IMG/VR virus record: IMGVR_UViG_3300030294_000003
Length of the DNA stretch: 64,000 bases
Strand: one strand, 5' to 3'
Source of the DNA: a virus
Lineage: Duplodnaviria; Heunggongvirae; Uroviricota; Caudoviricetes
The notes under the pieces were generated by a model, which was not told the origin of the DNA, did no database searches, and worked only from the letters and a program-made list of their open reading frames with translations. The stretch's first letter is position 1. Every line of letters starts with the position of its first letter. Positions 5,353 through 42,985 of the stretch are shown here, piece by piece. The position numbers were made by a program, and so were the translations under genes.

Positions 5353-5368
5353 ATACTCGTTTGAGTAC
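5353..5368 (+). promoter_or_regulatory. palindromic element H1 (aTACTCgtttGAGTAc)
   Basis: TACTC-N4-GAGTA lying after a stop codon, 30 nt upstream of the ATG. Confidence 0.4.
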
Positions 5369-5397
5369 CTAAAAAAAACAATTAAACATATACTTTT

Positions 5398-5595
5398 ATG
5401 GAAAAAATACTAACAAGTGAACAAATTGCGGACAATTTACTAAGTGATATAAACTCATACGGTGAGAATGTAAAAGAAATGATTATTAGATTACTTGAAA
5501 AGGATTCAAATTCTAAAAATTATTGGGATGCGTGGTTTAGGGGTGCTGAAAACAAAGATTTGGAAAAAGCCGAAAAAGGTTTAATATATAAATAA
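5398..5595 (+). CDS. hypothetical protein
   Basis: 65-aa ORF with palindromic element H1 30 nt upstream. Confidence 0.45.
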   Translation: MEKILTSEQIADNLLSDINSYGENVKEMIIRLLEKDSNSKNYWDAWFRGAENKDLEKAEKGLIYK

Positions 5596-5680
5596 ATTCA
5601 GTCGTTTTATATGGATGCAGTTACAATTTTGGATTCAATGAACTTATGTTTGAAAGTAAAGGTAAGTCGTTTAAAAGAGG

Positions 5681-5899
5681 TTGATAAATTGCCTATATTG
5701 TCGAAATTTTGGTTTTCCTCGAATGTTGGGTATAATTGTTTATTTTACGTTGATTATTACAATAGCAAATGTTATTTCTGATATAGTAGAGCGTTCGCAT
5801 TTAATGAGAGGGCGGTTAATAAATGGGGCATCTGTTTTTATATATGCCTTTATAAGTGAAATATCTATAACTTTAACAATTATATATTTTTTAATTTAA
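5681..5899 (+). CDS. putative small membrane protein
   Basis: 72-aa hydrophobic ORF (about 2 TM segments). The region 5596-5906 is ambiguous, with an alternative 55-aa ORF from 5611. Confidence 0.3.
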   Translation: MINCLYCRNFGFPRMLGIIVYFTLIITIANVISDIVERSHLMRGRLINGASVFIYAFISEISITLTIIYFLI

Positions 5900-5906
5900 A
5901 CAAATA

Positions 5907-6119
5907 ATGAAAGCAATTGTAACTATAAATAATAAAGAAGTTATTGTTAAAGTAAATGTATATCATGAAAGTTGTGATAGATTTGCAGATGTAACAATAG
6001 GTAGTAAAGATTTTAGATATGACTTCAAAGTTGAAGCAAATGGTGGTGATGATTGTCATGGTTATGTTTTTAAAGCGGAAGATTTAATAAATTTTTTATC
6101 TAATGATATTTTTATTTAA
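5907..6119 (+). CDS. hypothetical protein
   Basis: 70-aa ORF whose stop lies in cassette P6. Confidence 0.5.
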   Translation: MKAIVTINNKEVIVKVNVYHESCDRFADVTIGSKDFRYDFKVEANGGDDCHGYVFKAEDLINFLSNDIFI

Positions 6120-6170
6120 CAAATTCTATTTTAGAATGTCATTGTTAAACCGTATCTTTGCATTATCAAA
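6116..6170 (+). promoter_or_regulatory. promoter cassette P6 (-7 6153-6160)
   Basis: Consensus match. Confidence 0.55.
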
Positions 6171-6198
6171 TTTAATCAAATAATAAACACATACAGTT

Positions 6199-6513
6199 AT
6201 GGAAAAAGAACCAAAAGTATTAATAGATAGAAAAGAGGTTTCAAGGGATGCTTACAAGCAATTTCCTTATGGTAGCTTAATGCCAATCGGTTCAAGAGAC
6301 AGGGCTATGTATGAATCAAGAAAAGAAGCACATTTGCAAGGTGTTATATTCGCTGAACAAAAGTTAACAAATAAAATGTGCGATTTTAGCATATGGTGTG
6401 CAAAGGAATATAATTTTGATGGTGAAAGATTTTATTATGATACCCCAAATTACCCTGATGGAAGAACATTTTTCACTATTGAAGAACTTTTAAATCAGTT
6501 TTTAATACAATAA
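6199..6513 (+). CDS. hypothetical protein
   Basis: 104-aa ORF with cassette P6 upstream. Confidence 0.55.
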   Translation: MEKEPKVLIDRKEVSRDAYKQFPYGSLMPIGSRDRAMYESRKEAHLQGVIFAEQKLTNKMCDFSIWCAKEYNFDGERFYYDTPNYPDGRTFFTIEELLNQFLIQ

Positions 6514-6520
6514 TATAGGT

Positions 6521-6709
6521 ATGAAACAATTGATAGATGATAAAGAGGTTTCGGGTAGAAGTTATTACTATCTATTAGATTGGAATGAATCAAACAGGTG
6601 GGAATATATGTTTGAACATTTTGAAACAAAACGTCTTTGTGATTTAGAATTTCATCAATTTATTCAGTTATTTGAATATGCTACAAAACAAGATTTAAAA
6701 AATTTTTAA
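6521..6709 (+). CDS. hypothetical protein
   Basis: 62-aa ORF followed by the GNRA hairpin terminator. Confidence 0.45.
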   Translation: MKQLIDDKEVSGRSYYYLLDWNESNRWEYMFEHFETKRLCDLEFHQFIQLFEYATKQDLKNF

Positions 6710-6710
6710 C

Positions 6711-6740
6711 AAAAAGGTTTGCGAAAGTAAACCTTTTTTT
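6711..6740 (+). terminator. intrinsic terminator hairpin with GAAA tetraloop (copy 1)
   Basis: AAAAAGGTTTGC-GAAA-GTAAACCTTTTTTT, an 8-bp stem with a GNRA loop and a U-tract. Confidence 0.6.
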
Positions 6741-6757
6741 ATCTTTGTATCAAGAAG
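6735..6757 (+). promoter_or_regulatory. promoter -7 box P7 (6740-6747) fused to terminator hairpin
   Basis: TATCTTTGtatcaa immediately follows the T-tract of the hairpin. Confidence 0.45.
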
Positions 6758-6782
6758 TTAATCAATAAAACATAATAAAGTT

Positions 6783-6962
6783 ATGACCGAAAAAGATTAT
6801 AGTCCGTATTGCGGTAATAACATATCAAGAAACGAAAGAGGTGGCTGTGATAACCCTCGTACACGTTTCAATGGTAGTCAATTTGTTTGCCCTCGTTGTG
6901 GTTTTGTTTCACAATTTCCTGATGATTTCATTATTAGGTATAAAGCTAAATGGAATATTTAA
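6783..6962 (+). CDS. small zinc-ribbon protein
   Basis: 59-aa ORF, just below the track's 60-aa cutoff, with two Cys pairs (C-x-n-C and CPRC) and a -7 box at 6740. The track ORF 6841-7068 in another frame is rejected. Confidence 0.45.
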   Translation: MTEKDYSPYCGNNISRNERGGCDNPRTRFNGSQFVCPRCGFVSQFPDDFIIRYKAKWNI

Positions 6963-7012
6963 CAAATTCCATTTTCATAAGTCAATGTTAAACACTATCT
7001 TTGCATATCAAT
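6959..7012 (+). promoter_or_regulatory. promoter cassette P8 (-7 6996-7003)
   Basis: Near-identical copy of P2 with its leader. Confidence 0.55.
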
Positions 7013-7048
7013 TAGAAATAAAACAATATAAAATAACAAAAAGTTATG
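6959..7048 (+). repeat. duplicated promoter+leader segment, copy B
   Basis: See copy A. The downstream genes differ. Confidence 0.7.
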
Positions 7049-7402
7049 GTAAAGTTAAAACATTTTAATATAGATGAGGTTCTTAATTCTTATTTAGAAA
7101 CTTTATTATGGGTGGATGTTGAATTTGATGGGTATTCCATTATTGATGTTTGCGATGATTCAACTGAAATATCAAGATTAGATATTATCAACTTCATTAA
7201 AGAGATTGAAAAATCAAATGAAGCTATTGAAGAAGCGAATACCTATACTGATAGCTTATTAGGTCATAACTTCTTATTGAGTCGTAATGGACATGGGGCA
7301 GGATTTTTTGATGATAACAACGATGTGTTACAGGAAATTTGTAGGAAAACAAAAGAATGTAACATTTATTTGGGGGATGATAAACAAATACATATATTCT
7401 AA
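7046..7402 (+). CDS. hypothetical protein
   Basis: 118-aa acidic ORF with the duplicated cassette P8 upstream. Confidence 0.6.
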   Translation: MVKLKHFNIDEVLNSYLETLLWVDVEFDGYSIIDVCDDSTEISRLDIINFIKEIEKSNEAIEEANTYTDSLLGHNFLLSRNGHGAGFFDDNNDVLQEICRKTKECNIYLGDDKQIHIF

Positions 7403-7407
7403 TATTA

Positions 7408-7677
7408 ATGAATACGCCGAAAAAAGGTTCAACACAATTAAACAACATGAAAAAATCATTTTTGGTAGTATACGCATTAATATCTAATAATAATAATGAT
7501 AACTATACTATGGGTATTGACGTTGAATATGATGAAACGTTAATGATTGATGATAAAACATTAATTATTTTTACGGCTATATTGGTTAAACATCGCAATG
7601 AAAATACTAAAGGTCGTTTTAAAACTTGGGTATATGATACAGATGAAATATTTATAAAAACAATTTCTCAAATTTAA
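7408..7677 (+). CDS. hypothetical protein
   Basis: 89-aa ORF. Confidence 0.5.
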   Translation: MNTPKKGSTQLNNMKKSFLVVYALISNNNNDNYTMGIDVEYDETLMIDDKTLIIFTAILVKHRNENTKGRFKTWVYDTDEIFIKTISQI

Positions 7678-7728
7678 CAAATTCCATTTTAGAATATCAA
7701 AGTTAAATAATATCTTTGTATATCAATT
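7674..7728 (+). promoter_or_regulatory. promoter cassette P9 (-7 7711-7718)
   Basis: Consensus match. Confidence 0.55.
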
Positions 7729-7751
7729 TAATAAAGCAAATATAAAGTAAT

Positions 7752-7997
7752 ATGAAAATAGATGATTTTTTGAAAATATATAGTATTGAAACAATTGTTA
7801 AAGATAATCAAATTAACAATCGTGATTTATACTCTTCGGAAGAATTTAAAGCAAATATGAAATTGTGTAATACTAGTTTAATTGAGGTAGTTGAATATAA
7901 AAATATAAACAACTTTAATTCCACCACTTATGAAGTCATTTTTTATGATAATGATGATGAACTTTTATTTGAAACAGAAATTACATTAATTAAATAA
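7752..7997 (+). CDS. hypothetical protein
   Basis: 81-aa ORF with cassette P9 upstream. Confidence 0.55.
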   Translation: MKIDDFLKIYSIETIVKDNQINNRDLYSSEEFKANMKLCNTSLIEVVEYKNINNFNSTTYEVIFYDNDDELLFETEITLIK

Positions 7998-8006
7998 TAT
8001 TTAATT

Positions 8007-8306
8007 ATGAAAAACATTCAAGTTACAGGTAATTTATTTGGTGAAATGACAACACTAAAACAAATTAATATAGTTAAAGCTAAAAAGCTTTATGCTGATG
8101 GAATTACTGTATTTATTCAGTCATCAAATAAAATACCATTTCAACCTTATCAAAGTGTTTGCCCTATATCAAATCATTTGTTTAATTGTATGCATTCTTT
8201 TGATACAGATAGTGATTTATCCTTTAAAAGTCAATGCGAATCTTACTCATATTACAATTGTGATACCGAAAGAGGTACATATATTCACTATTTTGAAAAA
8301 ATTTAA
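8007..8306 (+). CDS. hypothetical protein
   Basis: 99-aa Cys-rich ORF. Confidence 0.5.
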   Translation: MKNIQVTGNLFGEMTTLKQINIVKAKKLYADGITVFIQSSNKIPFQPYQSVCPISNHLFNCMHSFDTDSDLSFKSQCESYSYYNCDTERGTYIHYFEKI

Positions 8307-8321
8307 CAAACTAAAAATATT

Positions 8322-8690
8322 ATGGAAAAAGAAATTAAAGGTGCTACTATTTTACATGCGGTTGTTGTTTTTGATGGAAATGTCAGTAACAATGATTTGG
8401 AAGAGGGGTTTGGCTCAATCACTTTAAAACGTGAAAATAGGGAATTTATTTTGGATATTGTTAATTCTAATTGGTTTTTCGATGGTGAAAAAACAGAGGT
8501 TGATTTAACGTTAGAAGTCGATTTAGAAGTGTTTGGGGATTGTAAATATGATTTAACAGATTTAGATTTACATTCAAGAGATTTGGAAGCTACTATTTTT
8601 ATCGGTGAAGTTGATGATATTTTAATTTCGGCAACCTTATTTGTTAAATTAGGTGAAATGACACAAGCAATTGATTTGAAATTAGATTAA
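8322..8690 (+). CDS. hypothetical protein
   Basis: 122-aa acidic ORF. Confidence 0.55.
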   Translation: MEKEIKGATILHAVVVFDGNVSNNDLEEGFGSITLKRENREFILDIVNSNWFFDGEKTEVDLTLEVDLEVFGDCKYDLTDLDLHSRDLEATIFIGEVDDILISATLFVKLGEMTQAIDLKLD

Positions 8691-8697
8691 ACATAAT

Positions 8698-8752
8698 TTA
8701 ACATATTCTATTTTGATATATCAATGTTAATGACTATCTTTGCATTACAATT
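8698..8752 (+). promoter_or_regulatory. promoter cassette P10 (-7 8735-8742)
   Basis: Consensus match. Confidence 0.5.
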
Positions 8753-8779
8753 TAATTAATTATATAAAAAAGTGGTATT

Positions 8780-9028
8780 ATGATATTCAACAAAAACGCA
8801 TCCGTATTATCAGACAATGGCGAAAAAGTCTTTTTAGTACCTGAAATTGAAGAGATTTTAACAATGGCTTATGACTATGATTATTCAAACAACAGTCGTA
8901 AAAATCGGTATTGTGATGAAGAGGTTTGTGATTGTTTTGATATTTCAGTTAATGAATTGAACCAAATGAAATATTTATTATCTTATGAATATAACACTGA
9001 TGAAAATGGTGGTCTGAAACAATTTTAA
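8780..9028 (+). CDS. hypothetical protein
   Basis: 82-aa ORF with cassette P10 upstream. Confidence 0.55.
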   Translation: MIFNKNASVLSDNGEKVFLVPEIEEILTMAYDYDYSNNSRKNRYCDEEVCDCFDISVNELNQMKYLLSYEYNTDENGGLKQF

Positions 9029-9032
9029 AAAA

Positions 9033-9087
9033 TTAACAAATTACATTTTGATATATTAATGTTAAACAGTATCTTTGTATTATAATT
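9033..9087 (+). promoter_or_regulatory. promoter cassette P11 (-7 9070-9077)
   Basis: Consensus match. Confidence 0.55.
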
Positions 9088-9110
9088 AATCAAATAATAA
9101 CAAAAACATT

Positions 9111-9344
9111 ATGAATACAGTAGCGTGTCAATTTGGTAATTTAAACAATCCGTTCATTAAAAAAGAAAACGAAAGCATATCATTATTTTGGTTGCATTGC
9201 ATTAGAGCATCAAGAGATGGTTATAATGGCGATGCAACTTTGTTTATAAATGGTAAGGCTGTTAGATACATGCTAAATGCAGATGTTAAAATATTAAATA
9301 AAAGTGTTCAGTGTACTTATGAAGTTATTAAACCTAAAAAATAA
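9111..9344 (+). CDS. hypothetical protein
   Basis: 77-aa ORF with cassette P11 upstream. Confidence 0.55.
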   Translation: MNTVACQFGNLNNPFIKKENESISLFWLHCIRASRDGYNGDATLFINGKAVRYMLNADVKILNKSVQCTYEVIKPKK

Positions 9345-9348
9345 TAAT

Positions 9349-9693
9349 ATGAAATCAATGAATCTTTGTTCTTATAAGACATCTCAATTTTGTTTAGCAC
9401 TTTTGAGACATGGTAAAAAATCAGATGAAGTACATGAAGAAATATGTTCTAAATTAGGCTTGTACGGTGTTAAATATTTTGGTCATGGTACTGCATACCA
9501 AAAAAGAAAAGTAGAGCATATTTGGCGTTCTATATTGTTTATACTCTATGATTTTACAGAGTTTTCCAATATGACAACGGTTGAACAAAAACAAGAAATT
9601 TCAAATTATTTAGAATTGAAAGTAGATAATAAAAATAATTTTGGTTTGAGTAAAAGTTATAAATCTATTAACAAATTACATTTTGATAATTGA
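9349..9693 (+). CDS. hypothetical protein
   Basis: Start at the internal ATG 9349, which avoids a 40-nt overlap of the track's 9304 start. The protein is 114 aa. Confidence 0.5.
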   Translation: MKSMNLCSYKTSQFCLALLRHGKKSDEVHEEICSKLGLYGVKYFGHGTAYQKRKVEHIWRSILFILYDFTEFSNMTTVEQKQEISNYLELKVDNKNNFGLSKSYKSINKLHFDN

Positions 9694-9722
9694 ATGTTAA
9701 ACCGTATCTTTGTACTATCAAT
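9668..9722 (+). promoter_or_regulatory. promoter cassette P12 (-7 9705-9712)
   Basis: Consensus match. Confidence 0.55.
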
Positions 9723-9767
9723 TAAAAGTAATTTAATCAAATAAAACAATTTAAAACCTATAAAATT

Positions 9768-10004
9768 ATGTATTACAGACTTTACGATAAACAGTGTAAA
9801 AGATATATGGCTACAGGCTATAATGCTAAATCAAAACAAGAATTAGTAGATGATTATAAAGACTATATTAACATGGATATTGATGAGAATGAAGAGGTTG
9901 AAATTGCAAATTTATCACTTAAAGATTCAATATCAATGATAATAGGAAATGATTTTTTTATTGATAAATCTAAAACAAAATTTGATGAAAATGAGTGTGA
10001 TTAA
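9768..10004 (+). CDS. hypothetical protein
   Basis: 78-aa ORF with cassette P12 upstream. Confidence 0.55.
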   Translation: MYYRLYDKQCKRYMATGYNAKSKQELVDDYKDYINMDIDENEEVEIANLSLKDSISMIIGNDFFIDKSKTKFDENECD

Positions 10005-10009
10005 ATTAT

Positions 10010-10064
10010 TTAACAAATTACATTAGTATATATCAATGTTAAAGACTATCTTTGTATTACAATA
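10010..10064 (+). promoter_or_regulatory. promoter cassette P13 (-7 10047-10054)
   Basis: Consensus match. Only short or split ORFs lie downstream. Confidence 0.5.
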
Positions 10065-10372
10065 AATCAAATAAAACAATTTATCGATTATGGAAAATAT
10101 AAAAAAAATGGAATTAGCAAAGGCTATGAGAAGAAAAGCTAATGAAAAAGAATATTAAGAACATTAAGTACTTCGTATAATAAATATATTAATACTATGA
10201 GAGATATTGAAATTGATTTACTAATCGAAGTATTAAATAATTGTAAACGTAAAGGGGCAAACTTTGTACAACTTCAAGGTACAATTATGTGTGAAGAAAC
10301 AGGAAATGAAATAATTTCGACAACAGAAAATCAAATTTAACAGATGAATTTTTAATTGATTTAGAAACAACG

Positions 10373-10388
10373 ATACTCGTTTGAGTAC
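10373..10388 (+). promoter_or_regulatory. palindromic element H2 (aTACTCgtttGAGTAc)
   Basis: Identical to H1. Confidence 0.4.
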
Positions 10389-10415
10389 TTAATTAATCAA
10401 AAATACTTTATTAAC

Positions 10416-10733
10416 ATGGAAGAAAAATTATATACGGAAGAGGATTTAAGAAACGCTTTTAAAGCAGGTAGATTATATGGCTATGATGATAGTATGGATG
10501 CGTTGAGTGAGGATGAATGGGTTAACGCATATAATTTAATACCTATAGTCATCGAAGAGAAAACCGTTCCTATCACATTGGGATGTATAAAAATAACATG
10601 TGGTTGGGAAAAATTTTGCGATGTAACAGGAGGTAATCATTGGATGATTGCTGAATGGACTGTTTCTGATAGTGAAATATTTCACGTTAAAATTTCGGAT
10701 GCTAAAAAATTAGGTTTTAATATTCAAAATTAA
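10416..10733 (+). CDS. hypothetical protein
   Basis: 105-aa ORF with palindromic element H2 upstream. Confidence 0.55.
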   Translation: MEEKLYTEEDLRNAFKAGRLYGYDDSMDALSEDEWVNAYNLIPIVIEEKTVPITLGCIKITCGWEKFCDVTGGNHWMIAEWTVSDSEIFHVKISDAKKLGFNIQN

Positions 10734-10738
10734 ATGTT

Positions 10739-10942
10739 ATGACAGAAATAAAGAAAGAACTAAAATTAATATTTCCCGATGCTGAATTTGATAATCATGA
10801 ATCGGATTTGTACGTGAGGTATACTCGTTGTATTTGGAAGTATTTAGACCGTGAATATATGTGGTTTGATAGTTGTTCTACTTTCATTAGTGAAGTTGAT
10901 GGTGAACGTTGGATTGAGATTCCTTTTGCTAATTGGGATTAA
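10739..10942 (+). CDS. hypothetical protein
   Basis: 67-aa ORF. Confidence 0.45.
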   Translation: MTEIKKELKLIFPDAEFDNHESDLYVRYTRCIWKYLDREYMWFDSCSTFISEVDGERWIEIPFANWD

Positions 10943-10957
10943 CAATAATTTTAAAAT

Positions 10958-11012
10958 TTAACAAATTCAATTAGTATAATCAAATGTTAATCCGTATCTT
11001 TACATTGTAATC
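10958..11012 (+). promoter_or_regulatory. promoter cassette P14 (-7 variant TATCTTTA 10995-11002)
   Basis: Consensus match except a G-to-A change at the last -7 position. Confidence 0.45.
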
Positions 11013-11041
11013 AAATTAATACAATCTAAATAAATAATAAT

Positions 11042-11278
11042 ATGGTAGTAGATAAAATAAGAGTTGAATACAGGGATAAAAAAACATTAAAATGGTTACA
11101 TGAGGATTTTCCTTTTGATGTTACAAAGGATTCTGAAAAGCAACTTAAAGAAGCTTGTGAACCATATAAGTATAATCAGGATGTTAGTTCAAGTTGGTTT
11201 ACGTTTATAAGTATTTCAGGTACATGGATGGAAATGAGGGTATATTATCCTTTTTTTAAAAGGTATGTAAAACTATAG
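11042..11278 (+). CDS. hypothetical protein
   Basis: 78-aa ORF with cassette P14 upstream. Confidence 0.55.
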   Translation: MVVDKIRVEYRDKKTLKWLHEDFPFDVTKDSEKQLKEACEPYKYNQDVSSSWFTFISISGTWMEMRVYYPFFKRYVKL

Positions 11279-11282
11279 TAAT

Positions 11283-11495
11283 ATGAAAAAAAAATATATA
11301 ATATTAGATGTTGAAAATAATCGATATTATTCATATATCGATTTGAGTTTAGAATTTTCTAAAAATTTAGAAAATGCACATAAATTTGATACTGAACAAG
11401 AAGCAGAAAAATTTATGGATGAGAATTTTAACGAATTAGACTCTTATTATCAATTAGTTGGTGTATATCATAAACACAGCCAAATATTTAACTAA
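11283..11495 (+). CDS. hypothetical protein
   Basis: 70-aa ORF. Confidence 0.45.
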   Translation: MKKKYIILDVENNRYYSYIDLSLEFSKNLENAHKFDTEQEAEKFMDENFNELDSYYQLVGVYHKHSQIFN

Positions 11496-11542
11496 TTTCA
11501 TTTCCATATATCATTGTTAAAGACTATCTTTGTATATCAATT
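11488..11542 (+). promoter_or_regulatory. promoter cassette P15 (-7 11525-11532)
   Basis: Consensus match. Confidence 0.5.
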
Positions 11543-11559
11543 AATAATTAAAACAAGTT

Positions 11560-11748
11560 ATGACAGTAAGAGAATTTATTGCAGAAATAAGCTTAATGAA
11601 AGATTCTTTACAGGATAAAGAAATTGTTATTAAAGCACCAAACGGATTATTATTTGAACCGTTTGTTAAATTTATTATGAAAGATGAACATATGATGCCT
11701 ATTTTTGATGCAGAGCATGTTGATAAAATTTTTATTACTTATAAATAA
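11560..11748 (+). CDS. hypothetical protein
   Basis: 62-aa ORF with cassette P15 upstream. Confidence 0.5.
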   Translation: MTVREFIAEISLMKDSLQDKEIVIKAPNGLLFEPFVKFIMKDEHMMPIFDAEHVDKIFITYK

Positions 11749-11763
11749 AAAACAAATAAACTT

Positions 11764-12267
11764 ATGTTAGAATTAAAACCTATTGTATTATCACTTGAAT
11801 ATCGTAAAGAATGGAACAAATCATCAAAGGATTTTTTTAATCTGTATGTTGATGGTAAAAAAGTAAATGATGCCATCTACAGAACAGGCATGTGGGACGG
11901 CAGAGTTAAGGATGGATATATTATGTTATTGAAATACGTTGAAGCGTTTTATTCAAAAGAAATACTTAAAATGAGTGGTAGTAATAAACCAAAGCATCTT
12001 GAGAGTCAGTGGTGTATTTTAAATGAAAAAGGTGAAGAAAAGGTTTGTTTTGAACCATATAATTCCCCTTATTTAATGGGTGGCGTAATTTATTCTATCA
12101 AATCCGATTATTTCAATATTGAAACAAATGAATTTTATTGCAACGCATCTTCTACCATGAATACAGATAATTATCTATTTTTGGAAAATAAATATGATAA
12201 AAATATTTTGAAACGTGGGGTTTTAAAAATAGAAAAGAAAACAGGTTTGTTTGAATTAATAAATTAA
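11764..12267 (+). CDS. hypothetical protein
   Basis: 167-aa ORF. Confidence 0.55.
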   Translation: MLELKPIVLSLEYRKEWNKSSKDFFNLYVDGKKVNDAIYRTGMWDGRVKDGYIMLLKYVEAFYSKEILKMSGSNKPKHLESQWCILNEKGEEKVCFEPYNSPYLMGGVIYSIKSDYFNIETNEFYCNASSTMNTDNYLFLENKYDKNILKRGVLKIEKKTGLFELIN

Positions 12268-12310
12268 TTATAATATTGATAAAAGTACAATATTGAATAA
12301 GATAAATAAT

Positions 12311-12365
12311 TTAACAAAATTGGTTTGTATATGTCGATGTTAAACCGTATCTTTGCATTATAATA
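12311..12365 (+). promoter_or_regulatory. promoter cassette P16 (-7 12348-12355)
   Basis: Consensus match. Confidence 0.55.
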
Positions 12366-12391
12366 ATTCAAACAAATAAACAAATACAATT

Positions 12392-12634
12392 ATGGAATTT
12401 AATTATAAATTTTGGAGTTGGAATAATGGAAAATATTATCAATCCTATCCTACTTTTTGGGGTAATACTGAAATTCGTTGGTTTTCAACAAAAGAAGCAG
12501 AGAAAAGTTGTGGCGAACTGTGGATTGACAATGTGCTAATTAAAACAGGTGAAGACTTAGGTTTTAATAATTATCATGACGGTACAATTGGATTGCTTAA
12601 ATTTGCGTTAGAAAATAACCTCTGTAAAAACTAA
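12392..12634 (+). CDS. hypothetical protein
   Basis: 80-aa ORF with cassette P16 upstream. Confidence 0.55.
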   Translation: MEFNYKFWSWNNGKYYQSYPTFWGNTEIRWFSTKEAEKSCGELWIDNVLIKTGEDLGFNNYHDGTIGLLKFALENNLCKN

Positions 12635-12641
12635 TATCATC

Positions 12642-12923
12642 ATGGAAGAAATAGTTGACCATTCATTTTGTAATTGTGGGGCTGTAACCGTTTATTTTGA
12701 AAACGGTGAAAACAATTCGCTAAAAAGAAAGAACTTAAAGAAGTTTGGACTATCTTTGAAATATAGTAATGAAATGCATTCTACATACGCTTGTAATCAT
12801 TGTGTTAATCATTACGGTTTAGATATATGCGAATGTGGAAGTGGTTTGAAACCTGAAAAATGTTGTAGAAAAGGAAGTCGTGAACAATTTGGTGAAAGCG
12901 TTAAATTTAGCTGTAAATTTTAG
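12642..12923 (+). CDS. SEC-C zinc-binding motif protein
   Basis: 93-aa ORF. CECGSGLKPEKCC matches the SecA C-terminal SEC-C motif (CxCxSGxxxxxCC), and there is an additional CxxC / CxxC pair. Confidence 0.5.
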   Translation: MEEIVDHSFCNCGAVTVYFENGENNSLKRKNLKKFGLSLKYSNEMHSTYACNHCVNHYGLDICECGSGLKPEKCCRKGSREQFGESVKFSCKF

Positions 12924-12935
12924 TAATATATTATT

Positions 12936-13136
12936 ATGAAGCAGATAAAATACGACCTATTCAATGTGGATTCTTATATGTGTAGTGTGTTCTTTTGTCC
13001 AAATATCGTTGGTGTTCTTTCAAAGGATGAAGAAAATTCTATTTTGAATTTAGTTAAAAAAGAACATTTTGAAATTGTTGATGGTTTTGGTGTATTATAT
13101 GGTTTAGTTATAAAAATAAATGCAGATTCATTATGA
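12936..13136 (+). CDS. hypothetical protein
   Basis: 66-aa ORF. Confidence 0.45.
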   Translation: MKQIKYDLFNVDSYMCSVFFCPNIVGVLSKDEENSILNLVKKEHFEIVDGFGVLYGLVIKINADSL

Positions 13137-13468
13137 TAAAAGATCTTATTAGTCAAATAGAAGCTATTAAAGAGCAGTTATACACTAAAATAAGTGAACT
13201 ACCCGACAATGCAAATATAAAGCGTTTAGATAGTGATTCTAATTGCTTTATTATTAATTCAAGTCAAATAATAGGAAAGCCATTTTCTCCTGAATACCAT
13301 GATTATAAACATCAATATAAACTTATCATTAAATATCTTAAAACGTGTGAAATTACCAACTTTGAAAATAGTTTAAATACTATAATTAAAACAAGTATTG
13401 TAAGGGATGGTAATAGAAGTGTTCGTTTAAACCCCGAAGTTGTTAAATATCTTAAAACAATTATTTAA
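13133..13468 (+). CDS. hypothetical protein
   Basis: 111-aa ORF with an ATGA overlap. Confidence 0.5.
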   Translation: MIKDLISQIEAIKEQLYTKISELPDNANIKRLDSDSNCFIINSSQIIGKPFSPEYHDYKHQYKLIIKYLKTCEITNFENSLNTIIKTSIVRDGNRSVRLNPEVVKYLKTII

Positions 13469-13518
13469 CAAATTCCATTTCATTATATCAAAGTTAAACC
13501 GTATCTTTGTGTATGAAT
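13464..13518 (+). promoter_or_regulatory. promoter cassette P17 (-7 13501-13508)
   Basis: Consensus match. Confidence 0.55.
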
Positions 13519-13549
13519 TAAATTAATAAATCAATTAAAATAATATTAT

Positions 13550-13912
13550 ATGAAAAAAGAAACGCTTGTAAACTGTTTAAATTGCGGACATGAATTTGTT
13601 TTAACAAGTTGGGGATATGATAAATTAGAAGATGATTGTGCTTTTTATACCGTTTGTCCTGAATGCGAAAGCAGTTTTGATATTTCAGATGAAGATGCTG
13701 AATCAATTTTAATACCTGATGGTACAGAAATCAAATTATCAGATGGTAGTATTTGTATTGTTGATGGGAATGATTTTGAAGATGTAGATTTTGAAGATGA
13801 TATACCTTTTGATAATATTAATTATCACGTTTGCCCTATTGAATTTACAAATGAAGAAATTTGGTCAGACCATTATATTTATGTGAGAAGAGTAGAATTC
13901 GAATTAAATTAA
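13550..13912 (+). CDS. zinc-ribbon protein
   Basis: 120-aa ORF with CLNCG..CPEC and a C-terminal CP motif. Cassette P17 is upstream. Confidence 0.55.
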   Translation: MKKETLVNCLNCGHEFVLTSWGYDKLEDDCAFYTVCPECESSFDISDEDAESILIPDGTEIKLSDGSICIVDGNDFEDVDFEDDIPFDNINYHVCPIEFTNEEIWSDHYIYVRRVEFELN

Positions 13913-13963
13913 CAAATTTCATTTCAGCCAATCAATTAAATTCACTACTTTTGTAATACAATT
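13909..13963 (+). promoter_or_regulatory. promoter cassette P18 (-7 variant TACTTTTG 13946-13953)
   Basis: The upstream box is conserved and the -7 box is a variant. Confidence 0.4.
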
Positions 13964-13987
13964 TAAAACAATAATAATAATAATCGT

Positions 13988-14215
13988 ATGAAAACATTAA
14001 TAACTGAAATGTCTCACAATATCGGACAAATTCGAGAAGAATTTGCAGATGAAGAAGTAAAACGAATGATTAAACAAACAGGTAAAAATTGGTCAAAATC
14101 TTATGAAGACCAAATGTTTGTTATTGATGAATCAGATGATGATGTTATTAATCCTTGTATAAGAAAAGAAGGACATTGTTTTGTATGTCAAGATAATTAT
14201 GTTGAAAATTGGTAA
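13988..14215 (+). CDS. hypothetical protein
   Basis: 75-aa ORF with cassette P18 upstream. Confidence 0.5.
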   Translation: MKTLITEMSHNIGQIREEFADEEVKRMIKQTGKNWSKSYEDQMFVIDESDDDVINPCIRKEGHCFVCQDNYVENW

Positions 14216-14238
14216 TTAAGCAAAATAAAACAATCGTT

Positions 14239-14400: not shown

Positions 14401-14412
14401 AAACTTTAATGA

Positions 14413-14613: not shown

Positions 14614-14623
14614 CTAAATAATT

Positions 14624-14887: not shown

Positions 14888-14907
14888 TATAAATACATTA
14901 TTATATT

Positions 14908-15715: not shown

Positions 15716-15718
15716 ATT

Positions 15719-17417: not shown

Positions 17418-17433
17418 ATACTCAATTGAGTAC
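17418..17433 (+). promoter_or_regulatory. palindromic element H3 (aTACTCAATTGAGTAc, perfect 14-bp palindrome)
   Basis: Perfect palindrome. Confidence 0.4.
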
Positions 17434-19610: not shown

Positions 19611-19626
19611 ATACTCATTTGAGTAT
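19611..19626 (+). promoter_or_regulatory. palindromic element H4 (ATACTCAtttGAGTAT)
   Basis: 7-nt arms. Confidence 0.4.
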
Positions 19627-24488: not shown

Positions 24489-24504
24489 ATACTCAAATGA
24501 GTAT
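24489..24504 (+). promoter_or_regulatory. palindromic element H5 (ATACTCAaaTGAGTAT)
   Basis: 7-nt arms. Confidence 0.4.
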
Positions 24505-34803: not shown

Positions 34804-35601
34804 ATGGAAAAAGTATTATTAAACTCATTGAAAATAGGTGATGAATTTCGGTTATTAAGCGAAAATGATACGCTATATACAATTCGTGTTGTTGATAATG
34901 ATAATCGTGTATTTGTTGATAGCAACGTGACGGCACTTTCAGAAATAAGAACTGAATATGTGTATGTTGATAATAAAATTAAAAAAGCATTGGAGTGGTG
35001 GAGTGGAATAACTAATACTATGAAAAAAGTTAATTTACAAGAAACATATATTGGTAATTGTAGTTTATTGAGAACATTAACAGATGGAGAAATAGTTTAC
35101 ATTTGGGAATCTGAAAATAACAAAAAAATAACACCAATTATCAAAAACGAAAAAATGTTGGATAAAATGGAAGAGTTCATGAGAGATTCAACATCAGAAT
35201 CCATATTGGATGATTGTAAAAAATGGGGTATTCCTGTGGAAGATGTTATCGAGGAAAAACCAAAGTCAATTAATAATATGGTGGAAGATTTAAAAGAATA
35301 TTTCAGAATAACATCAAGAGAAAAGGTTTTGGAAGATTGGGCAAAATCTGCTGAATATGATAATGTTGGTGTATCTGTAAGTGAGTTTCTTGATGTACAG
35401 GAAAGTTACCAATATAAATATGTTTGGCTTAATTTAATCACAGGTGCGTTTACTATGTCATGGACAGAAGAGATTGAAAAATTATATGGTTGTGATGCTG
35501 AACTGCAAGAAAAAGCCAACAAAGACGGAATGAAACTTATCAAATACCAATGTGTTAACGACCATGAGTTTGAATTTTATAATCAAATGAAACTTAGATA
35601 A
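34804..35601 (+). CDS. hypothetical protein
   Basis: 265-aa ORF. Confidence 0.6.
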   Translation: MEKVLLNSLKIGDEFRLLSENDTLYTIRVVDNDNRVFVDSNVTALSEIRTEYVYVDNKIKKALEWWSGITNTMKKVNLQETYIGNCSLLRTLTDGEIVYIWESENNKKITPIIKNEKMLDKMEEFMRDSTSESILDDCKKWGIPVEDVIEEKPKSINNMVEDLKEYFRITSREKVLEDWAKSAEYDNVGVSVSEFLDVQESYQYKYVWLNLITGAFTMSWTEEIEKLYGCDAELQEKANKDGMKLIKYQCVNDHEFEFYNQMKLR

Positions 35602-35614: not shown

Positions 35615-35630
35615 ATACTCAATTGAGTAC
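35615..35630 (+). promoter_or_regulatory. palindromic element H6 (aTACTCAATTGAGTAc)
   Basis: Perfect 14-bp palindrome identical to H3. Confidence 0.4.
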
Positions 35631-40786: not shown

Positions 40787-41108
40787 AGAATTTATATTAT
40801 GTGCAGCTATTCATTATAAAAATGGTGCTGAAACAACCGTATATGGGGTTGAAGATGGTGTAATTGTTTGTGGGAGAAGACATGGAGATTGTTATGCTAT
40901 TTTGAAAGGTATATTGAATATTGGTGATGATTATAATATTGATGATTTACCCGATAGAGATGAGCAGGGATTTTTAACATCTGAAAATAGGTTTGTTTCA
41001 AGACGTGAAGCGTGGTTTATAGCTAAAAAAAATAAACAAATTAGATTTGGGTTAGAAGCAACAGAGAATGGAGAATTTAGTGAATTAATTTCCGAAAACT
41101 TATATTAA
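40776..41108 (+). CDS. hypothetical protein
   Basis: 110-aa ORF. Confidence 0.5.
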   Translation: MNNKEFILCAAIHYKNGAETTVYGVEDGVIVCGRRHGDCYAILKGILNIGDDYNIDDLPDRDEQGFLTSENRFVSRREAWFIAKKNKQIRFGLEATENGEFSELISENLY

Positions 41109-41122
41109 AATACTAATATTTT

Positions 41123-41401
41123 ATGAAAACAAATATTTTAGATAGAAGATTATCAGTCGAAGATCAAAGTGAAATTTTAGAAACGTTGTTTTCTTTTAAA
41201 TGTGTAAAAACGGATGAAAATGATGATAAACATGTTATTATCTACGATGAAGAGGGTTACGAATTTTATGGTAATGATATTAACCTGAAATATGATTTAA
41301 CAAATATTCGGGGAATTATATGGTATGCCAAAGACATATCAGCTTATAATGCTATTTGGGAACATAACACCAAAATCAAAAATCTTTTAAATATAAGATA
41401 A
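41123..41401 (+). CDS. hypothetical protein
   Basis: 92-aa ORF. Confidence 0.5.
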   Translation: MKTNILDRRLSVEDQSEILETLFSFKCVKTDENDDKHVIIYDEEGYEFYGNDINLKYDLTNIRGIIWYAKDISAYNAIWEHNTKIKNLLNIR

Positions 41402-41402
41402 G

Positions 41403-41642
41403 ATGATGGAACAACAGAATATAATAAAAGGCAATAAAGTTAAATTTTACGATTGTTTTCAAGTTTCAATTGATAAAGATGCATCTGGAACTAATCCAAA
41501 ACATTACCCTATTGGTATTGTCGATAAGGTTTATATCTATCACAGTATTTTTGGTTATTCTGATCAGGTTTGTGACATTAAAATAGGTAATAGAATATCA
41601 AGAGCGCATTTCACTAATTGTGTTACCAAAATACCCAATTGA
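41403..41642 (+). CDS. hypothetical protein
   Basis: 79-aa ORF. Confidence 0.45.
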   Translation: MMEQQNIIKGNKVKFYDCFQVSIDKDASGTNPKHYPIGIVDKVYIYHSIFGYSDQVCDIKIGNRISRAHFTNCVTKIPN

Positions 41643-41878
41643 GTATGCTGAAAAAGAAAAAACTCACAGTTAAAGAAAAACTGTTTAATGATATTGATAG
41701 TGTAATATCAATTAAACTTAGTTTAACGGGGCTTAAAGAGTTCGAAAACTATTTTAGAACCGAACTATTCACTGCAGGACCCGATCAATGGAATGAGCTT
41801 GAAATAGCTATTTGTGACTATAATATGAGAATACAAACTGAATTAGAAACCGAAATAAAAAAACTACTAATAAAATGA
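41618..41878 (+). CDS. hypothetical protein
   Basis: 86-aa ORF. The start is uncertain (41618 or 41645). Confidence 0.45.
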   Translation: MCYQNTQLSMLKKKKLTVKEKLFNDIDSVISIKLSLTGLKEFENYFRTELFTAGPDQWNELEIAICDYNMRIQTELETEIKKLLIK

Positions 41879-42168
41879 AAAATATAGAGAAAAAATATAC
41901 AAAAGAAGAAATTCTTTTATTTAATGAAAATGATTGGGAGTTTGGTCGTAGTAGTGGCTATGCTGGTTATTATCGGAAAGGATCAGAATATTGTGATAAG
42001 GAATCTAATTGGATCTATGAACAAGATTATATGGATCGTAAAAATCTATTGGAAAAGTATTATGAAGATTATAAACTACTTCACAATTTCAGACTTGAAC
42101 AATTAGAATTTGGAAAATACCCCGACTACATCATTCAAGATTTTTTAAACAACAAATATTTTAAATAA
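41875..42168 (+). CDS. hypothetical protein
   Basis: 97-aa ORF with an ATGA overlap. Confidence 0.5.
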   Translation: MKNIEKKYTKEEILLFNENDWEFGRSSGYAGYYRKGSEYCDKESNWIYEQDYMDRKNLLEKYYEDYKLLHNFRLEQLEFGKYPDYIIQDFLNNKYFK

Positions 42169-42178
42169 ACAATATTAT

Positions 42179-42334
42179 ATGGTATTATTCATTTTAATTT
42201 TAGGTTTAATTCTTAATATTTTGAGTGTTTATGTTGATATTAAGAAAAAATATTACTATGTTCTTATATTAAACGCAATTGCGGTTGTTTTAATATCTTT
42301 TGCTATTATTAATCACTTCTTTAAAATTATATAA
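42179..42334 (+). CDS. putative small 2-TM membrane protein
   Basis: 51-aa hydrophobic ORF below the track cutoff. Confidence 0.3.
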   Translation: MVLFILILGLILNILSVYVDIKKKYYYVLILNAIAVVLISFAIINHFFKII

Positions 42335-42338
42335 ATAT

Positions 42339-42683
42339 ATGAAACTAAGCGAAATTCACAATGGTTTAGAAAACCAAAATATTAGAGAAATGTTATCAAA
42401 AAAAATAGGTGATTTGGTTTTTAATTTACCACAAAAAATACAGGTAGATAATAAACTATATATTCTTGATTGGTCAATTAAAAATGAAGAGGCTGAAATA
42501 GCCTATCATACGGAATTATTAAATAAAACAAAAGAAAAACAAGCCTGTAGATTACTAATTAAAATGATGGGTTGGGAGGAATATGATGTTTCGGATTACA
42601 CACAATTGGATTTACCTAATTGGATTAACTTTATTGGAACTGAAAACGAATATCATAACCTTTTAAAACAATTAAACGTATGA
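42339..42683 (+). CDS. hypothetical protein
   Basis: ATG at 42339, because the track's 42300 start is a TTG. The protein is 114 aa. Confidence 0.5.
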   Translation: MKLSEIHNGLENQNIREMLSKKIGDLVFNLPQKIQVDNKLYILDWSIKNEEAEIAYHTELLNKTKEKQACRLLIKMMGWEEYDVSDYTQLDLPNWINFIGTENEYHNLLKQLNV

Positions 42684-42967
42684 TATTAATGTATATTTTC
42701 GCTGGATTAGTATTATTGTGTGCCATAGCCTCTGGTGTTATGGTTGATAACGATAACAAAAATGGTAAATATAATACGGCTATGATAGTATTTGTGATTA
42801 TGCTTCTTTTTTCGGTAATTGTTGGTGGAATAACATCAAAAACATCATATAAGGATGGCTTTGAAAAAGGATACCAAAAAGGTCAAGTTGACTACCAAAA
42901 AGGCAAAATAGAATATAAGGTGGAAATCAAACAAGTAACCGATACAATTATATCAAAAGCTAATTAA
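42680..42967 (+). CDS. membrane protein
   Basis: 95 aa with two TM helices and a C-terminal YQKGxxDYQKG repeat. Confidence 0.5.
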   Translation: MILMYIFAGLVLLCAIASGVMVDNDNKNGKYNTAMIVFVIMLLFSVIVGGITSKTSYKDGFEKGYQKGQVDYQKGKIEYKVEIKQVTDTIISKAN

Positions 42968-42969
42968 TA

Positions 42970-42985
42970 ATACTCAAATGAGTAC
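42970..42985 (+). promoter_or_regulatory. palindromic element H7 (aTACTCAAATGAGTAc)
   Basis: Same arm sequences as H1-H6. Confidence 0.4.

Follow-up and report, generated by a model that had tools for sequence, protein, structure and literature searches.

Copies of an inverted repeat between genes

The window, by which we mean the whole 64,000-nt stretch of phage DNA that was analysed, contains seven exact matches to TACTCNNNNGAGTA, a 14-base inverted repeat of the form TACTC-N4-GAGTA that we call PAL. An earlier note on this sequence had reported the same seven copies, with coordinates one base low because they include an invariant A. The copies are given here together with one imperfect match.

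5354..5367, + strand: PAL copy TACTCGTTTGAGTA; flanks A and CCTAA; 13 nt after the stop of gene 5080-5340, 30 nt to ATG 5398
10374..10387, + strand: PAL copy TACTCGTTTGAGTA; flanks A and CTTAA; 33 nt after a 47-codon ORF, 28 nt to ATG 10416
17419..17432, + strand: PAL copy TACTCAATTGAGTA, perfect palindrome; 6 nt after the stop of gene 16822-17412, 26 nt to ATG 17459
19612..19625, + strand: PAL copy TACTCATTTGAGTA; flanks A and TCTAA; 7 nt after the stop of gene 19386-19604, 22 nt to ATG 19648
24490..24503, + strand: PAL copy TACTCAAATGAGTA; flanks A and TTTAA; 3 nt after the stop of gene 24016-24486, 19 nt to ATG 24523
35616..35629, + strand: PAL copy TACTCAATTGAGTA, perfect palindrome; 14 nt after the stop of gene 34804-35601, 21 nt to ATG 35651
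42971..42984, + strand: PAL copy TACTCAAATGAGTA; flanks A and CCTAA; 3 nt after the stop of the ninth gene of an operon, 17 nt to ATG 43002
41632..41645, + strand: one-mismatch PAL TACCCAATTGAGTA, exactly at a gene junction

The arms are invariant and the loops vary (GTTT, AATT and AAAT twice each, ATTT once), and two of the copies are perfect palindromes, all as first described. The copy at 19612 is conserved exactly in the strain-level contigs L005-L009. The 47-codon ORF upstream of the copy at 10374 has the appearance of a broken gene. ATG 35651 opens a 35-codon ORF, with gene 35762 next, and the operon whose ninth gene precedes the copy at 42971 starts at promoter 40419.

All seven copies are intergenic, in gaps 34-75 nt long, and none of these gaps contains a TATCTTTG box; the observation that PAL follows a stop codon and precedes a gene without that cassette holds for every copy in the window. 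Each copy has a stop codon 3-33 nt before it and an ATG 17-30 nt after it, so that their placement just upstream of start codons stands, while the range of 11-30 nt originally given for it does not. Dinucleotide-preserving shuffles yield a mean of 0.02 matches and a maximum of 1. Intergenic sequence makes up 7,438 of the 64,000 nt, and by our own arithmetic the chance of all seven copies falling within it is about 3e-7; the motif is enriched between genes and is not scattered at random in coding sequence. Allowing up to two arm mismatches gives 25 matches against 16 expected, which is near chance, and only one of these near-copies, TACCCAATTGAGTA, coincides with a gene junction: gene 41403-41642 ends on its TGA, the next ATG begins at its last base, and it is possibly a decayed copy of PAL.

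With its flanks the phage sequence extends to 83 kb and contains 12 copies, five of them in the flanks. For nine of the 12 the preceding stop codon is 2-14 nt away, and for a tenth it is 33 nt away. A promoterless ATG follows 17-30 nt downstream of eight, the eighth such case being a copy in the upstream flank, 25 nt ahead of its ATG. Two copies stand directly 5' of a full promoter cassette, another follows a -7 box by 11 nt in a gap without ORFs, and a further copy is inside the end of an ORF. All but one of the 12 fall within a 52-kb zone of small ORFs and promoter cassettes. In L025, the copy at 3151 is followed within ~20 nt by what reads in the sequence as a terminator-like GC-rich hairpin and T-run, fused to a promoter cassette. 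Because this separate hairpin follows PAL, PAL is not simply the terminator.

PAL in related phages

Other phage contigs carry a further 107 distinct copies in 61 loci (448 kb). These relatives are AT-rich uncultured phage contigs with Bacteroidota-type promoters. PAL was not found in host genomes, cultured phages, Rfam or the searchable literature; for Rfam 15, neither strand of the window or of L025 gave a match at gathering score. One 17-19-mer containing the motif is common to phages that share almost no genes.

Among 86 gene-oriented copies in the relatives, the distance from stop codon to PAL has a median of 19 nt (first quartile 8), against a median of 82 nt from PAL to the next ATG. 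From these medians we conclude that PAL tracks the end of the upstream gene and not the start of the downstream one. What lies downstream is mixed: 18 copies have a promoterless ATG within the next 45 nt, 24 (~24/73) precede a full promoter, four lie in a leader just past a -7 box, and 27 are of none of these kinds. The earlier proposal that PAL occupies the promoter slot is therefore too narrow, given that copies also precede full promoters, follow a -7 box or tRNA genes, or overlap an ORF end.

The orientation of PAL relative to genes is nearly fixed in the relatives. Copies bearing the 19-mer are in the sense orientation in 43 of 43 cases, the 19-mer having been the search query. Among the relative copies not selected by that search, 41 of 43 have G at position -1, the loops are AAAT (24), GAAT (9) and ATTT (1), and at the central step AA outnumbers TT by 35 copies to one.

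In six loci PAL starts 2-6 nt past the 3' end of a tRNA gene, always on the tRNA strand: tRNA-Met in L168, and tRNA-Arg in L323, L331, L325, L332 and L344. The order in L323 is tRNA-CCA, 2 nt, ATG, PAL, 45 nt and a promoterless ORF. A transcript with this order must be cut at that point.

Sequence constraints and predicted folding

All 30 of 30 sites that were aligned have identical PAL arms, with no compensatory changes, and copies with one mismatch number only nine in the 448 kb of relatives. We take the invariance and the missing compensatory changes to indicate base-specific reading by a protein, as opposed to a hairpin recognised by structure only. Covariation is absent since the five stem pairs never vary, and is uninformative for or against structure. 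The stem comprises five invariant base pairs, two of them G-C, and the loop always has 4 nt; flanking positions pair in a minority of copies, again without covariation. In its AT-rich context PAL is predicted to be able to form the hairpin, with a stem probability of 0.69-0.80 and a free energy of -4.0 to -5.6 kcal/mol at 37 C.

The conserved stretch around PAL is ~20 nt. In the relatives a 5' flank (W)ATG is conserved and the 3' flank is free; the window phage has YNTAA(A) on the 3' side. The frames opened by the flanking ATG are unconserved and run for 5-39 codons at 25 of 26 sites, the exception being a TTG-flanked site with 92 codons. In the window phage all 24 half-sites read R-TACTC-R, giving a full site RTACTCR-NN-YGAGTAY; the loop begins with R and ends with Y. 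At the central step AA and TT are found in five copies each and AT in two, never TA or G/C, where AA, TT and AT together make up 51% of steps in the intergenic background. No conserved -7-like box was found at a fixed distance after PAL.

What reads PAL?

PAL is a real, selected element of invariant arms, tied to the ends of genes, nearly fixed in orientation in the relatives, widespread among phages and absent from hosts. The explanation that we tentatively favour, and consider a good possibility, is that PAL works as a sequence-specific hairpin, a processing or stability mark in polycistronic early RNA. Within one group of Bacteroidota phages, large and AT-rich, PAL would then be a lineage-wide punctuation of gene-module ends in early regions, which are crowded with small ORFs. 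On the transcript, UACUC-NNNN-GAGUA would fold to a 5-bp stem with a 4-nt loop. A dedicated reader protein is proposed because this hairpin is too weak and too invariant to act by structure alone; the reader, probably phage-encoded, would recognise it base by base. We infer that it is the RNA that is read, rather than the DNA, and that the likely outcome would be a cut beside the hairpin, protection of the newly formed RNA end, or both. This would part an upstream cistron or tRNA from what follows and give genes near the promoter a stability or expression level different from that of distal ones. In a variant of this scheme, the hairpin would be a place of regulated pausing or attenuation. The mixture of promoterless genes, full promoters and other contexts that follow PAL fits a processing or stability mark better than it fits a promoter or an efficient terminator. 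An RNA processing site had been mentioned in the earlier note, although not as its main idea, and is the reading we now prefer.

Parts of the sequence speak against RNA. It would be odd for an RNA loop to take AAAU and AUUU alike yet refuse UA, and the dyad-symmetric constraints in the window phage look like those on duplex DNA. Furthermore, an A.C mismatch on the sense strand stands in the way of a longer stem in 8 of the 12 window-phage copies, and 13 of the 86 relative copies lie inside ORFs (by crude ORF calls). No nuclease or RNA-binding domain was found in the ~158 window ORFs.

In a second explanation, possible but rather less than probable, PAL is a 16-bp dyad-symmetric site in duplex DNA, RTACTCR-NN-YGAGTAY, for a dimeric phage regulator within early transcription units. 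Such a site might be a polar roadblock or insulator after gene ends and before promoters, or the operator of a temporal switch. The format, already likened to a dimer site in the earlier note, is that of a classic helix-turn-helix dimer operator, a dyad of 14-18 bp with invariant half-sites that lack compensatory variants. Moreover, in the temperate phage L087/L273 a CI/Cro switch has the same 14-mer in its -35/-10 spacer, and homologous switches have TACGC..GCGTA or TATGC..GCATA with the same A/T centre. The restriction of the central step fits read-out of a narrow minor groove, and four PAL copies follow a -7 box at 11-31 nt, a position taken by roadblock repressors. However, most copies overlap no promoter element and are far from -33/-7 boxes, and the distance from PAL to the next -7 box, 49-86 nt, shows no helical phasing. 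A symmetric dimer predicts neither the near-absolute orientation and loop strand bias of the relatives nor their conserved 5' ATG beside a free 3' flank, and copies just past tRNA genes have no obvious operator logic. Among the ~158 window ORFs no helix-turn-helix, RHH or sigma domain was found, and no homologue of the L087 repressor was found in any PAL-bearing locus.

Returning to the RNA hairpin, a bolder claim, which we think unlikely, is that PAL is the site of a novel phage-encoded hairpin-specific RNA (or single-strand DNA) enzyme system in a broad clade of large Bacteroidota phages. If true, one version would be an mRNA/tRNA punctuation nuclease, a functional analogue of RegB/RNase III in hosts without Shine-Dalgarno-led translation. 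In a more radical version PAL would be attC-like, and phages would swap promoter-gene-PAL cassettes there.

It seems to us improbable that PAL is all or part of a promoter of a second temporal class, served by a phage-encoded RNA polymerase, sigma factor or activator and possibly extruded as a hairpin as in N4. This was the idea to which the earlier note gave most room, and it survives as a minority reading. The seven window copies stand before promoterless genes at what is a normal leader length here, the eighth copy and 18 relative copies also have a promoterless gene downstream, the ~20-nt conserved stretch is promoter-sized, and T4 has tandem early plus middle promoters. Set against this, PAL is fixed to the upstream gene end with a very variable distance to the next gene, and neither a -7-like box nor a start site is conserved at a fixed offset. 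In relatives the conserved flank is upstream of PAL and the downstream flank is free. Some copies immediately follow tRNA genes or lie in or across the ends of ORFs, 11 of 12 are in the early-type cassette zone and not among later genes, and no polymerase or sigma gene was found within the window.

There is likewise only a slim chance that PAL has no dedicated reader and is a linker at module borders for recombinational shuffling of small early genes, whether in the manner of PeSLs (promoter-early stem-loops) or by site-specific cassette exchange. L253 and L071, which are 92% identical, differ by a ~480-nt promoter-plus-gene-plus-PAL module, inserted in L253 relative to L071 and bounded by a one-mismatch PAL at its left junction and a perfect PAL at its right end. 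PAL regions are also rich in small orphan genes and repeated promoter cassettes, like PeSLs (PMC2839356, PMC4122927), and the shared 17-19-mer agrees with exchange. But this is a single junction example, 14-19 bases are short for homologous exchange, and second-order selection for evolvability is unlikely to keep 10 arm positions fixed across 107 copies whose loops and flanks drift. The PAL sites have no linked recombinase. TnpB-like and HNH genes do occur in PAL-bearing loci, kilobases from the PAL sites.

We can practically dismiss a chance or compositional artefact, for which only the 26% G+C of the genome and the commonness of AT-only palindromes there can be said, given the counts, the copies in other phages and the fact that TACTC is the sole G/C-containing arm among enriched 5-N(3-6)-5 palindromes, and with it an ordinary intrinsic terminator, which, as had been recognised at the outset, is contradicted by a weak stem with no T-run and a 3' flank that is YNTAA(A) or unconserved, a terminator scan having passed over PAL and picked two canonical terminators with T-runs nearby.

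Comparison with known systems

Three copies of a hairpin promoter with 3-nt loops, at one genome end, serve the giant virion RNA polymerase of phage N4, which reads the template strand ahead of the start site. They resemble PAL as short inverted repeats in the early region with a sequence-specific stem; PAL differs in its 4-nt loop, its dispersal and its anchoring to gene ends, and the N4 arrangement of a 5-7-bp stem with a 3-nt loop before early starts was not seen. The one BLAST match in N4-like phages proved to be coding sequence and not PAL. In lambda nut, boxA lies a few nt upstream of a 5-bp boxB stem with a conserved purine-rich 5-nt loop; the loop of PAL has 4 nt and varies in this phage, and no conserved element lies beyond -4. 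REP and IS200-IS605-type ends combine a conserved 5' tetranucleotide with a hairpin, are strand-specific, and have a Y1 (HUH) transposase in the genome. PAL resembles them in its (W)ATG-plus-hairpin layout and strand specificity; TnpB-like ORFs occur in two PAL-bearing loci, and TnpA/RAYT was not seen.

Operators of XRE/CI-Cro type repressors are dyad-symmetric and 14-17 bp long, e.g. ACAA-N6-TTGT in 434. They share with PAL the 5-N4-5 layout, A/T centre and invariant half-sites, and in L087 the identical 14-mer. Unlike PAL, they overlap -35/-10 beside the regulator gene and are free in orientation, whereas PAL is mostly off promoter elements, tied to gene ends and strongly oriented in relatives, with no regulator gene nearby.

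PeSLs of T4-type phages are stem-loops physically joined to a strong early promoter (Arbiol 2010, PMC2839356; Comeau 2014, PMC4122927). They are described as effective terminators, and their sequences differ between phage pairs (PMC2839356, PMC4122927). Like PAL, they are short conserved regulatory repeats that separate small, non-essential early genes in hyperplastic regions. Their stem-loop, too, comes immediately after a gene, in many cases with a strong promoter of host type directly downstream; short stems also occur (AGNA-loop-TCNT), and close relatives have their indel junctions at the repeat. The 52-kb zone and the L253/L071 module match this setting. The joined promoter is found for a third of the relative copies classified above and for 2 of 12 in the window phage, most window copies preceding promoterless genes. 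PAL differs in being invariant across many unrelated phages, in often standing alone before a promoterless gene or after a tRNA, and in coexisting with separate canonical terminator-promoter composites; its two G-C pairs and lack of a T-run would argue against an intrinsic terminator in the PeSL sense.

The histone mRNA 3' stem-loop is read by SLBP and forms an RNA end. It has a short stem, a 4-nt loop, a conserved stem and 5' flank and a position shortly after the stop codon, as PAL does; being eukaryotic and unrelated in sequence, it is comparable in logic alone.

T7 RNase III sites and T4 RegB GGAG sites serve the intercistronic processing of phage early mRNAs. RNase III needs ~20 bp of duplex RNA, and PAL has 5-7 bp, with five invariant pairs and no imperfect duplex of ~20 bp or more; RegB recognises a motif of 4 nt at Shine-Dalgarno sites, and the hosts in question make no use of such sites. 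The likeness to PAL lies in repeated signals between the cistrons of polycistronic early transcripts and in leaders, where upstream RNAs are parted from downstream ones and protective hairpins are left. From its position just behind gene ends, those of tRNA genes included, PAL looks more like a protein-read mark in early transcripts than like a spare promoter.

PAL marks gene ends in the window phage

A pattern scan of the window returned seven exact copies of TACTCNNNNGAGTA, the 14-base inverted repeat TACTC-N4-GAGTA that we term PAL, at positions 5354, 10374, 17419, 19612, 24490, 35616 and 42971, while dinucleotide-preserving shuffles of the window give an expected count of 0.02. The window has a G+C content of 26% and a strongly positive GC skew; in a simple gene map every plausible gene is on the plus strand, and 11.6% of the window is intergenic. 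All seven copies occupy gaps of 34–75 nt devoid of the cassette, the main host-type promoter of this phage, and stand 3–33 nt past a stop codon and 17–30 nt ahead of an ATG. These gap, stop and ATG distances confirm an earlier note's description of the seven copies, save that its coordinates were off by one base and its lower bound for the distance to the ATG was wrong. Around each copy the operon layout is promoter, one to nine genes, PAL, one to three genes, next promoter.

The cassette itself, TTTAACAAATTnCATTT-N~20-(gttaaa)-N-TATCTTTG, is a very conserved element of ∼55 bp placed 22–60 nt ahead of start codons, and is a Bacteroidota-type −33/−7 promoter with a TAnnTTTG −7 box and an upstream TTAAC element. 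TATCTTTG occurs 41 times against 5 expected. Related phages have the same layout, with TAYCTTTG instead.

Window 1297-43537, plus strand: promoter cassette, 40 copies
L025 (same phage, upstream of the window) 895-8791: further promoter cassettes

Metagenome contigs with identical proteins lengthen the sequence on both sides, giving an assembly of 82.9 kb with 12 PAL copies, so that our phage-wide statements cover 83 kb out of a genome of >200 kb. Four of the additional copies lie upstream of the window. Two of them, 2 and 7 nt past a stop codon, are followed 13 and 10 nt on by a full cassette, one of which contains a terminator-like GC-rich hairpin and T-run; a third is 10 nt past a stop and 25 nt ahead of an ATG; and the fourth, 11 nt 3′ of a TACCTTTG −7 box, is within an ORF-free gap of 660 nt. 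The twelfth copy falls inside an ORF, near its 3′ end, and stops 33 nt short of that ORF's stop codon. The earlier note had placed PAL in an empty promoter slot. The window copies do precede genes without a cassette, but the settings of the upstream and twelfth copies indicate that the shared feature is the end of the preceding gene.

Two of these neighbourhoods have peculiarities of their own. Just upstream of the copy at 10374, window 10091-10340, 3′ of the promoter at 10047, holds a 22-codon and then a 47-codon ORF where one gene is expected, and is probably a broken gene. The ORF-free gap (L025 7697-8355) contains a terminator 3′ of gene 7529-7696, a stretch unusually rich in C at 7940-7995 and an 11-bp-stem hairpin overlapping the −7 box next to its PAL; it could encode a small RNA.

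Arms, loop and flanks

As sense RNA, PAL would be the hairpin AUGUACUCAAAUGAGUAUG, which is weak (−4.0 to −5.6 kcal/mol) yet still predicted to fold (stem probability 0.69–0.80) in its AT-rich, unstructured surroundings. All aligned copies agree at each of the ten arm positions; the five stem pairs show zero variation, and covariation at flanking positions is not above that of shuffled controls. Just nine one-mismatch copies and six paired double variants were found in 448 kb. That PAL is either perfect or absent implies base-specific reading of both arms. The sole intergenic paired double variant seen, TACTT-ATGA-AAGTA at ∼3255 of L184 (reverse strand), lies 50 nt 5′ of a perfect PAL and just ahead of a TACCTTTG box; it may be a coincidence or a copy that has diverged.

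In the window phage the first loop position is always a purine and the fourth always a pyrimidine, and the central step is AA in five copies, TT in five and AT in two, never TA and never containing G or C; AA, TT and AT account for 51% of intergenic dinucleotides. The base 5′ of the motif is A in 12/12 copies, and the 3′ bases follow Y-N-T-A-A. The relatives, which are other AT-rich PAL-bearing contigs with Bacteroidota-type promoters, obey different flank and loop rules: their motif, (W)ATG-TACTC-RAAT-GAGTA, is strongly asymmetric and gene-oriented, with an unconstrained 3′ flank. Among the 43 relative copies that lie outside search-pattern selection, G stands at −1 in 41, the loop is AAAT in 24, GAAT in nine, AATT in four and ATTT in one, and the central step is AA in 35 vs TT in one. 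Read on the opposite strand, the window copies resemble those of the other phages at −4, −3 and −1. The ATG before PAL opens frames of 5–39 codons at 25 of 26 sites (the remaining one is TTG-flanked, with 92 codons), and these short, unconserved frames rule it out as a true start codon; PAL is not coding.

Distribution among phages and hosts

By protein, the nearest named relatives of the window phage are Cellulophaga phage phi4:1, whose single PAL is inside a gene and was taken as chance, and the uncultured 462-kb phage LR756500, with zero copies in the 100 kb fetched. Two PAL-adjacent proteins had no relatives in IMG/VR, and homologues of window 24016-24486 (≤53% identity) lie in unrelated phages without PAL. 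An IMG/VR search with the promoter-cassette pattern gave four 36% G+C contigs with one PAL each, which we count as one chance event because all the copies fall in the same coding sequence (YSVEY). When IMG/VR was scanned for motif patterns, most matches were single and put down to chance; the scans also brought up several large AT-rich contigs (92–360 kb) in which a fetched stretch has two to five PALs and TAnnTTTG promoters are numerous. Scanning metagenomes for the 19-mer ATGTACTCAAATGAGTATG identified 50 loci; several carry a human-gut assembly label, and nearly all are of 28–40% G+C with extra PAL copies. The total is 107 distinct copies at 61 loci in 448 kb. PAL-bearing contigs come from rumen, gut and peat samples, among them ERZ808252 NODE-58, OPXD01000001 and the Ga0247611/Ga0310697 series, with the Ga0302215/Ga0311351 series representing the window phage.

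Few proteins are common to the window phage and the relatives, and somewhat more to the relatives themselves. Across the fetched stretches the sole family linking the window phage to others, namely two of five compared PAL-phage groups, is a 99-aa protein (window 8007-8306; also in L222, L168, L071 and L253) with conserved YYNCD-ERG-Y and no Pfam or PHROG match.

Bacterial and archaeal genomes totalling 596 Gb yielded just 14 single matches to the 18-mer, by rough estimate about the number due to chance; most of these read as coding, and a host element is ruled out. No INPHARED record of a cultured phage has more than one copy, and a match in N4-like phages was rejected as coding sequence with a differing right arm. 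PAL has no match in Rfam, and six PAL variants appear in no searchable paper.

Placement in the relatives

Using crude longest-ORF calls, we find PAL in the relatives a median of 19 nt past the upstream stop (first quartile 8) and a median of 82 nt ahead of the next ATG; in two copies a TGA within the motif doubles as the upstream stop codon. What follows is mixed. Among 73 classifiable copies, a host-type promoter comes next in 24 and a promoterless ATG within 45 nt in 18, while four lie in a leader just past a −7 box and 27 belong to none of these classes. In a 38-site table the −7 box begins 49–64 nt past the motif at ten sites and 82–86 nt past it at three. Copies of PAL are also found behind tRNA genes, on the same strand as the tRNA: tRNA-Met in L168, and tRNA-Arg(CCT) in five loci, several of which are probably one inherited arrangement. 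The order in L323 is tRNA-CCA, two bases, ATG-PAL, 45 nt and then, without an intervening promoter, the ATG of the following gene. PAL marks the ends of protein genes and tRNA genes alike, and a promoterless cistron may come next; we conclude that it is neither a translational signal nor an efficient terminator.

A transcript mark or a DNA site

Our functional statements are all drawn from sequence. The reading we tentatively put first, with slightly less than even confidence, is that PAL may be a transcript-level mark for processing, stability or attenuation. That it is instead a duplex site for a regulator or polar roadblock seems doubtful to us. The invariant arms fit a duplex site as well as a protein-read RNA hairpin. 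In the window phage, the symmetric loop rule and the sense-strand A.C flank speak for duplex DNA. An RNA-level, or at least transcription-polar, mark is favoured by the anchoring to gene ends, tRNAs included, by the mixed downstream contexts and, in the relatives, by the near-absolute orientation together with the conserved 5′ flank. Neither the placement nor the orientation bias in the relatives is operator-like.

A precedent for an operator does exist in an unrelated temperate phage, L087 (37% G+C), where a divergent CI/Cro pair has TACTCGAATGAGTA and TACTCAAACGAGTA around and between its −35 and −10 boxes.

L087 1771-1925 (= L273): CI/Cro switch with exact PAL 14-mer operators
L274-L294: homologous switches

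In the homologous switches TACGC-ATTT-GCGTA or TATGC-ATTT-GCATA occupies the same place, the 5-N4-5 layout being kept and inner arm bases exchanged, which is repressor-operator co-variation; 5-N4-5 with an A/T centre is thus a normal operator format of an XRE family. No PAL locus encodes a homologue of the L087 repressor, and Pfam and PHROGs searches of the ∼158 window ORFs for a reader protein gave small zinc ribbons alone, with no HTH, sigma, nuclease or other nucleic-acid-binding regulator; both results weigh against a duplex site.

Other proteins encoded in the window are:

Window 31596-32423: SPFH/Band 7 protein
Window 44028-44876: GmrSD_N (DUF262)-like protein
Window 48526-50109: HATPase_c_3 (MORC/GHKL-type) protein, 527 aa
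Window 53747-55879: DUF8224 protein, 710 aa, with 56% identity to a Cellulophaga phage phi4:1 protein and 62% to an LR756500 protein

Window 58808-63348 and L270 5147-5848 hold a gene cluster that is probably for RNA repair or modification and includes an RNA ligase (PF09414), two calcineurin-like phosphoesterases and an FGase-family protein; a LigT/2H phosphoesterase match also occurs somewhere among the window ORFs. Other PAL loci (L329 8012-9175 and L340 11826-13469; L316, L334 and L337; L342, L324 and L323) carry TnpB-like (phrog_506) or HNH homing-endonuclease genes or a recurrent 355-aa protein of phrog_1221, a family with no assigned function. Linkage of PAL to such genes was rejected, as these ORFs are kilobases from every copy.

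Promoters and terminators

We think it improbable that PAL is an alternative promoter. It has no TAnnTTTG box, which excludes a host-type promoter, and no position-specific signal for a MotA-like or extended −10 promoter follows it. Sigma-70-type matches in window 1-20000 are fewer than in shuffled sequence (143 vs 169 ± 11), consistent with a host without TTGACA/TATAAT promoters. With two G-C pairs and no T-run, PAL is not an intrinsic terminator either. The canonical terminators apart from PAL, two in the first 20 kb, are each fused to a cassette, and such composites place a GC-rich hairpin (GCGAAAG-type loop) and T-run within the cassette spacer, ending directly in TATCTTTG.

Window 6711-6747 and 15340-15379: terminator-promoter composites
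L025 ∼860-902 and ∼3165-3210: terminator-promoter composites

Significance and comparison with known systems

Bacteroidota phages are a major part of gut, rumen and environmental viromes, and to our knowledge their gene regulation is almost unmapped. Coliphage models do not transfer, because Bacteroidota hosts have unusual promoters and use no Shine-Dalgarno sequences. A signal of 14–19 nt that stays invariant over >100 sites, in dozens of uncultured phages not otherwise related, implies that a conserved trans-acting factor awaits discovery, and is a direct handle for finding it. PAL is also of practical use as a flag for module borders and for early, hyperplastic regions when contigs of this phage group are met in metagenomes.

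Such a border is seen in L253, which is 92% identical to L071 and carries an extra ∼480-nt module made up of a promoter, one small gene and a PAL, with a one-mismatch PAL at the left junction and a perfect one at the right end. A pure recombination linker is nonetheless a reading to which we give little weight. In T4-type phages, orphan genes that undergo shuffling have conserved promoter/stem-loop repeats at their borders (PMC2839356, PMC4122927). The L253 border, a single example here, matches that picture, and the terminator-promoter composites have an architecture like that of these promoter-early stem-loop (PeSL) cassettes. PAL is familiar in kind, as a conserved intercistronic inverted repeat of phage early regions, and new in sequence, as an undescribed element invariant over many uncultured Bacteroidota phages and set apart in defined ways from PeSL stem-loops and from operators.
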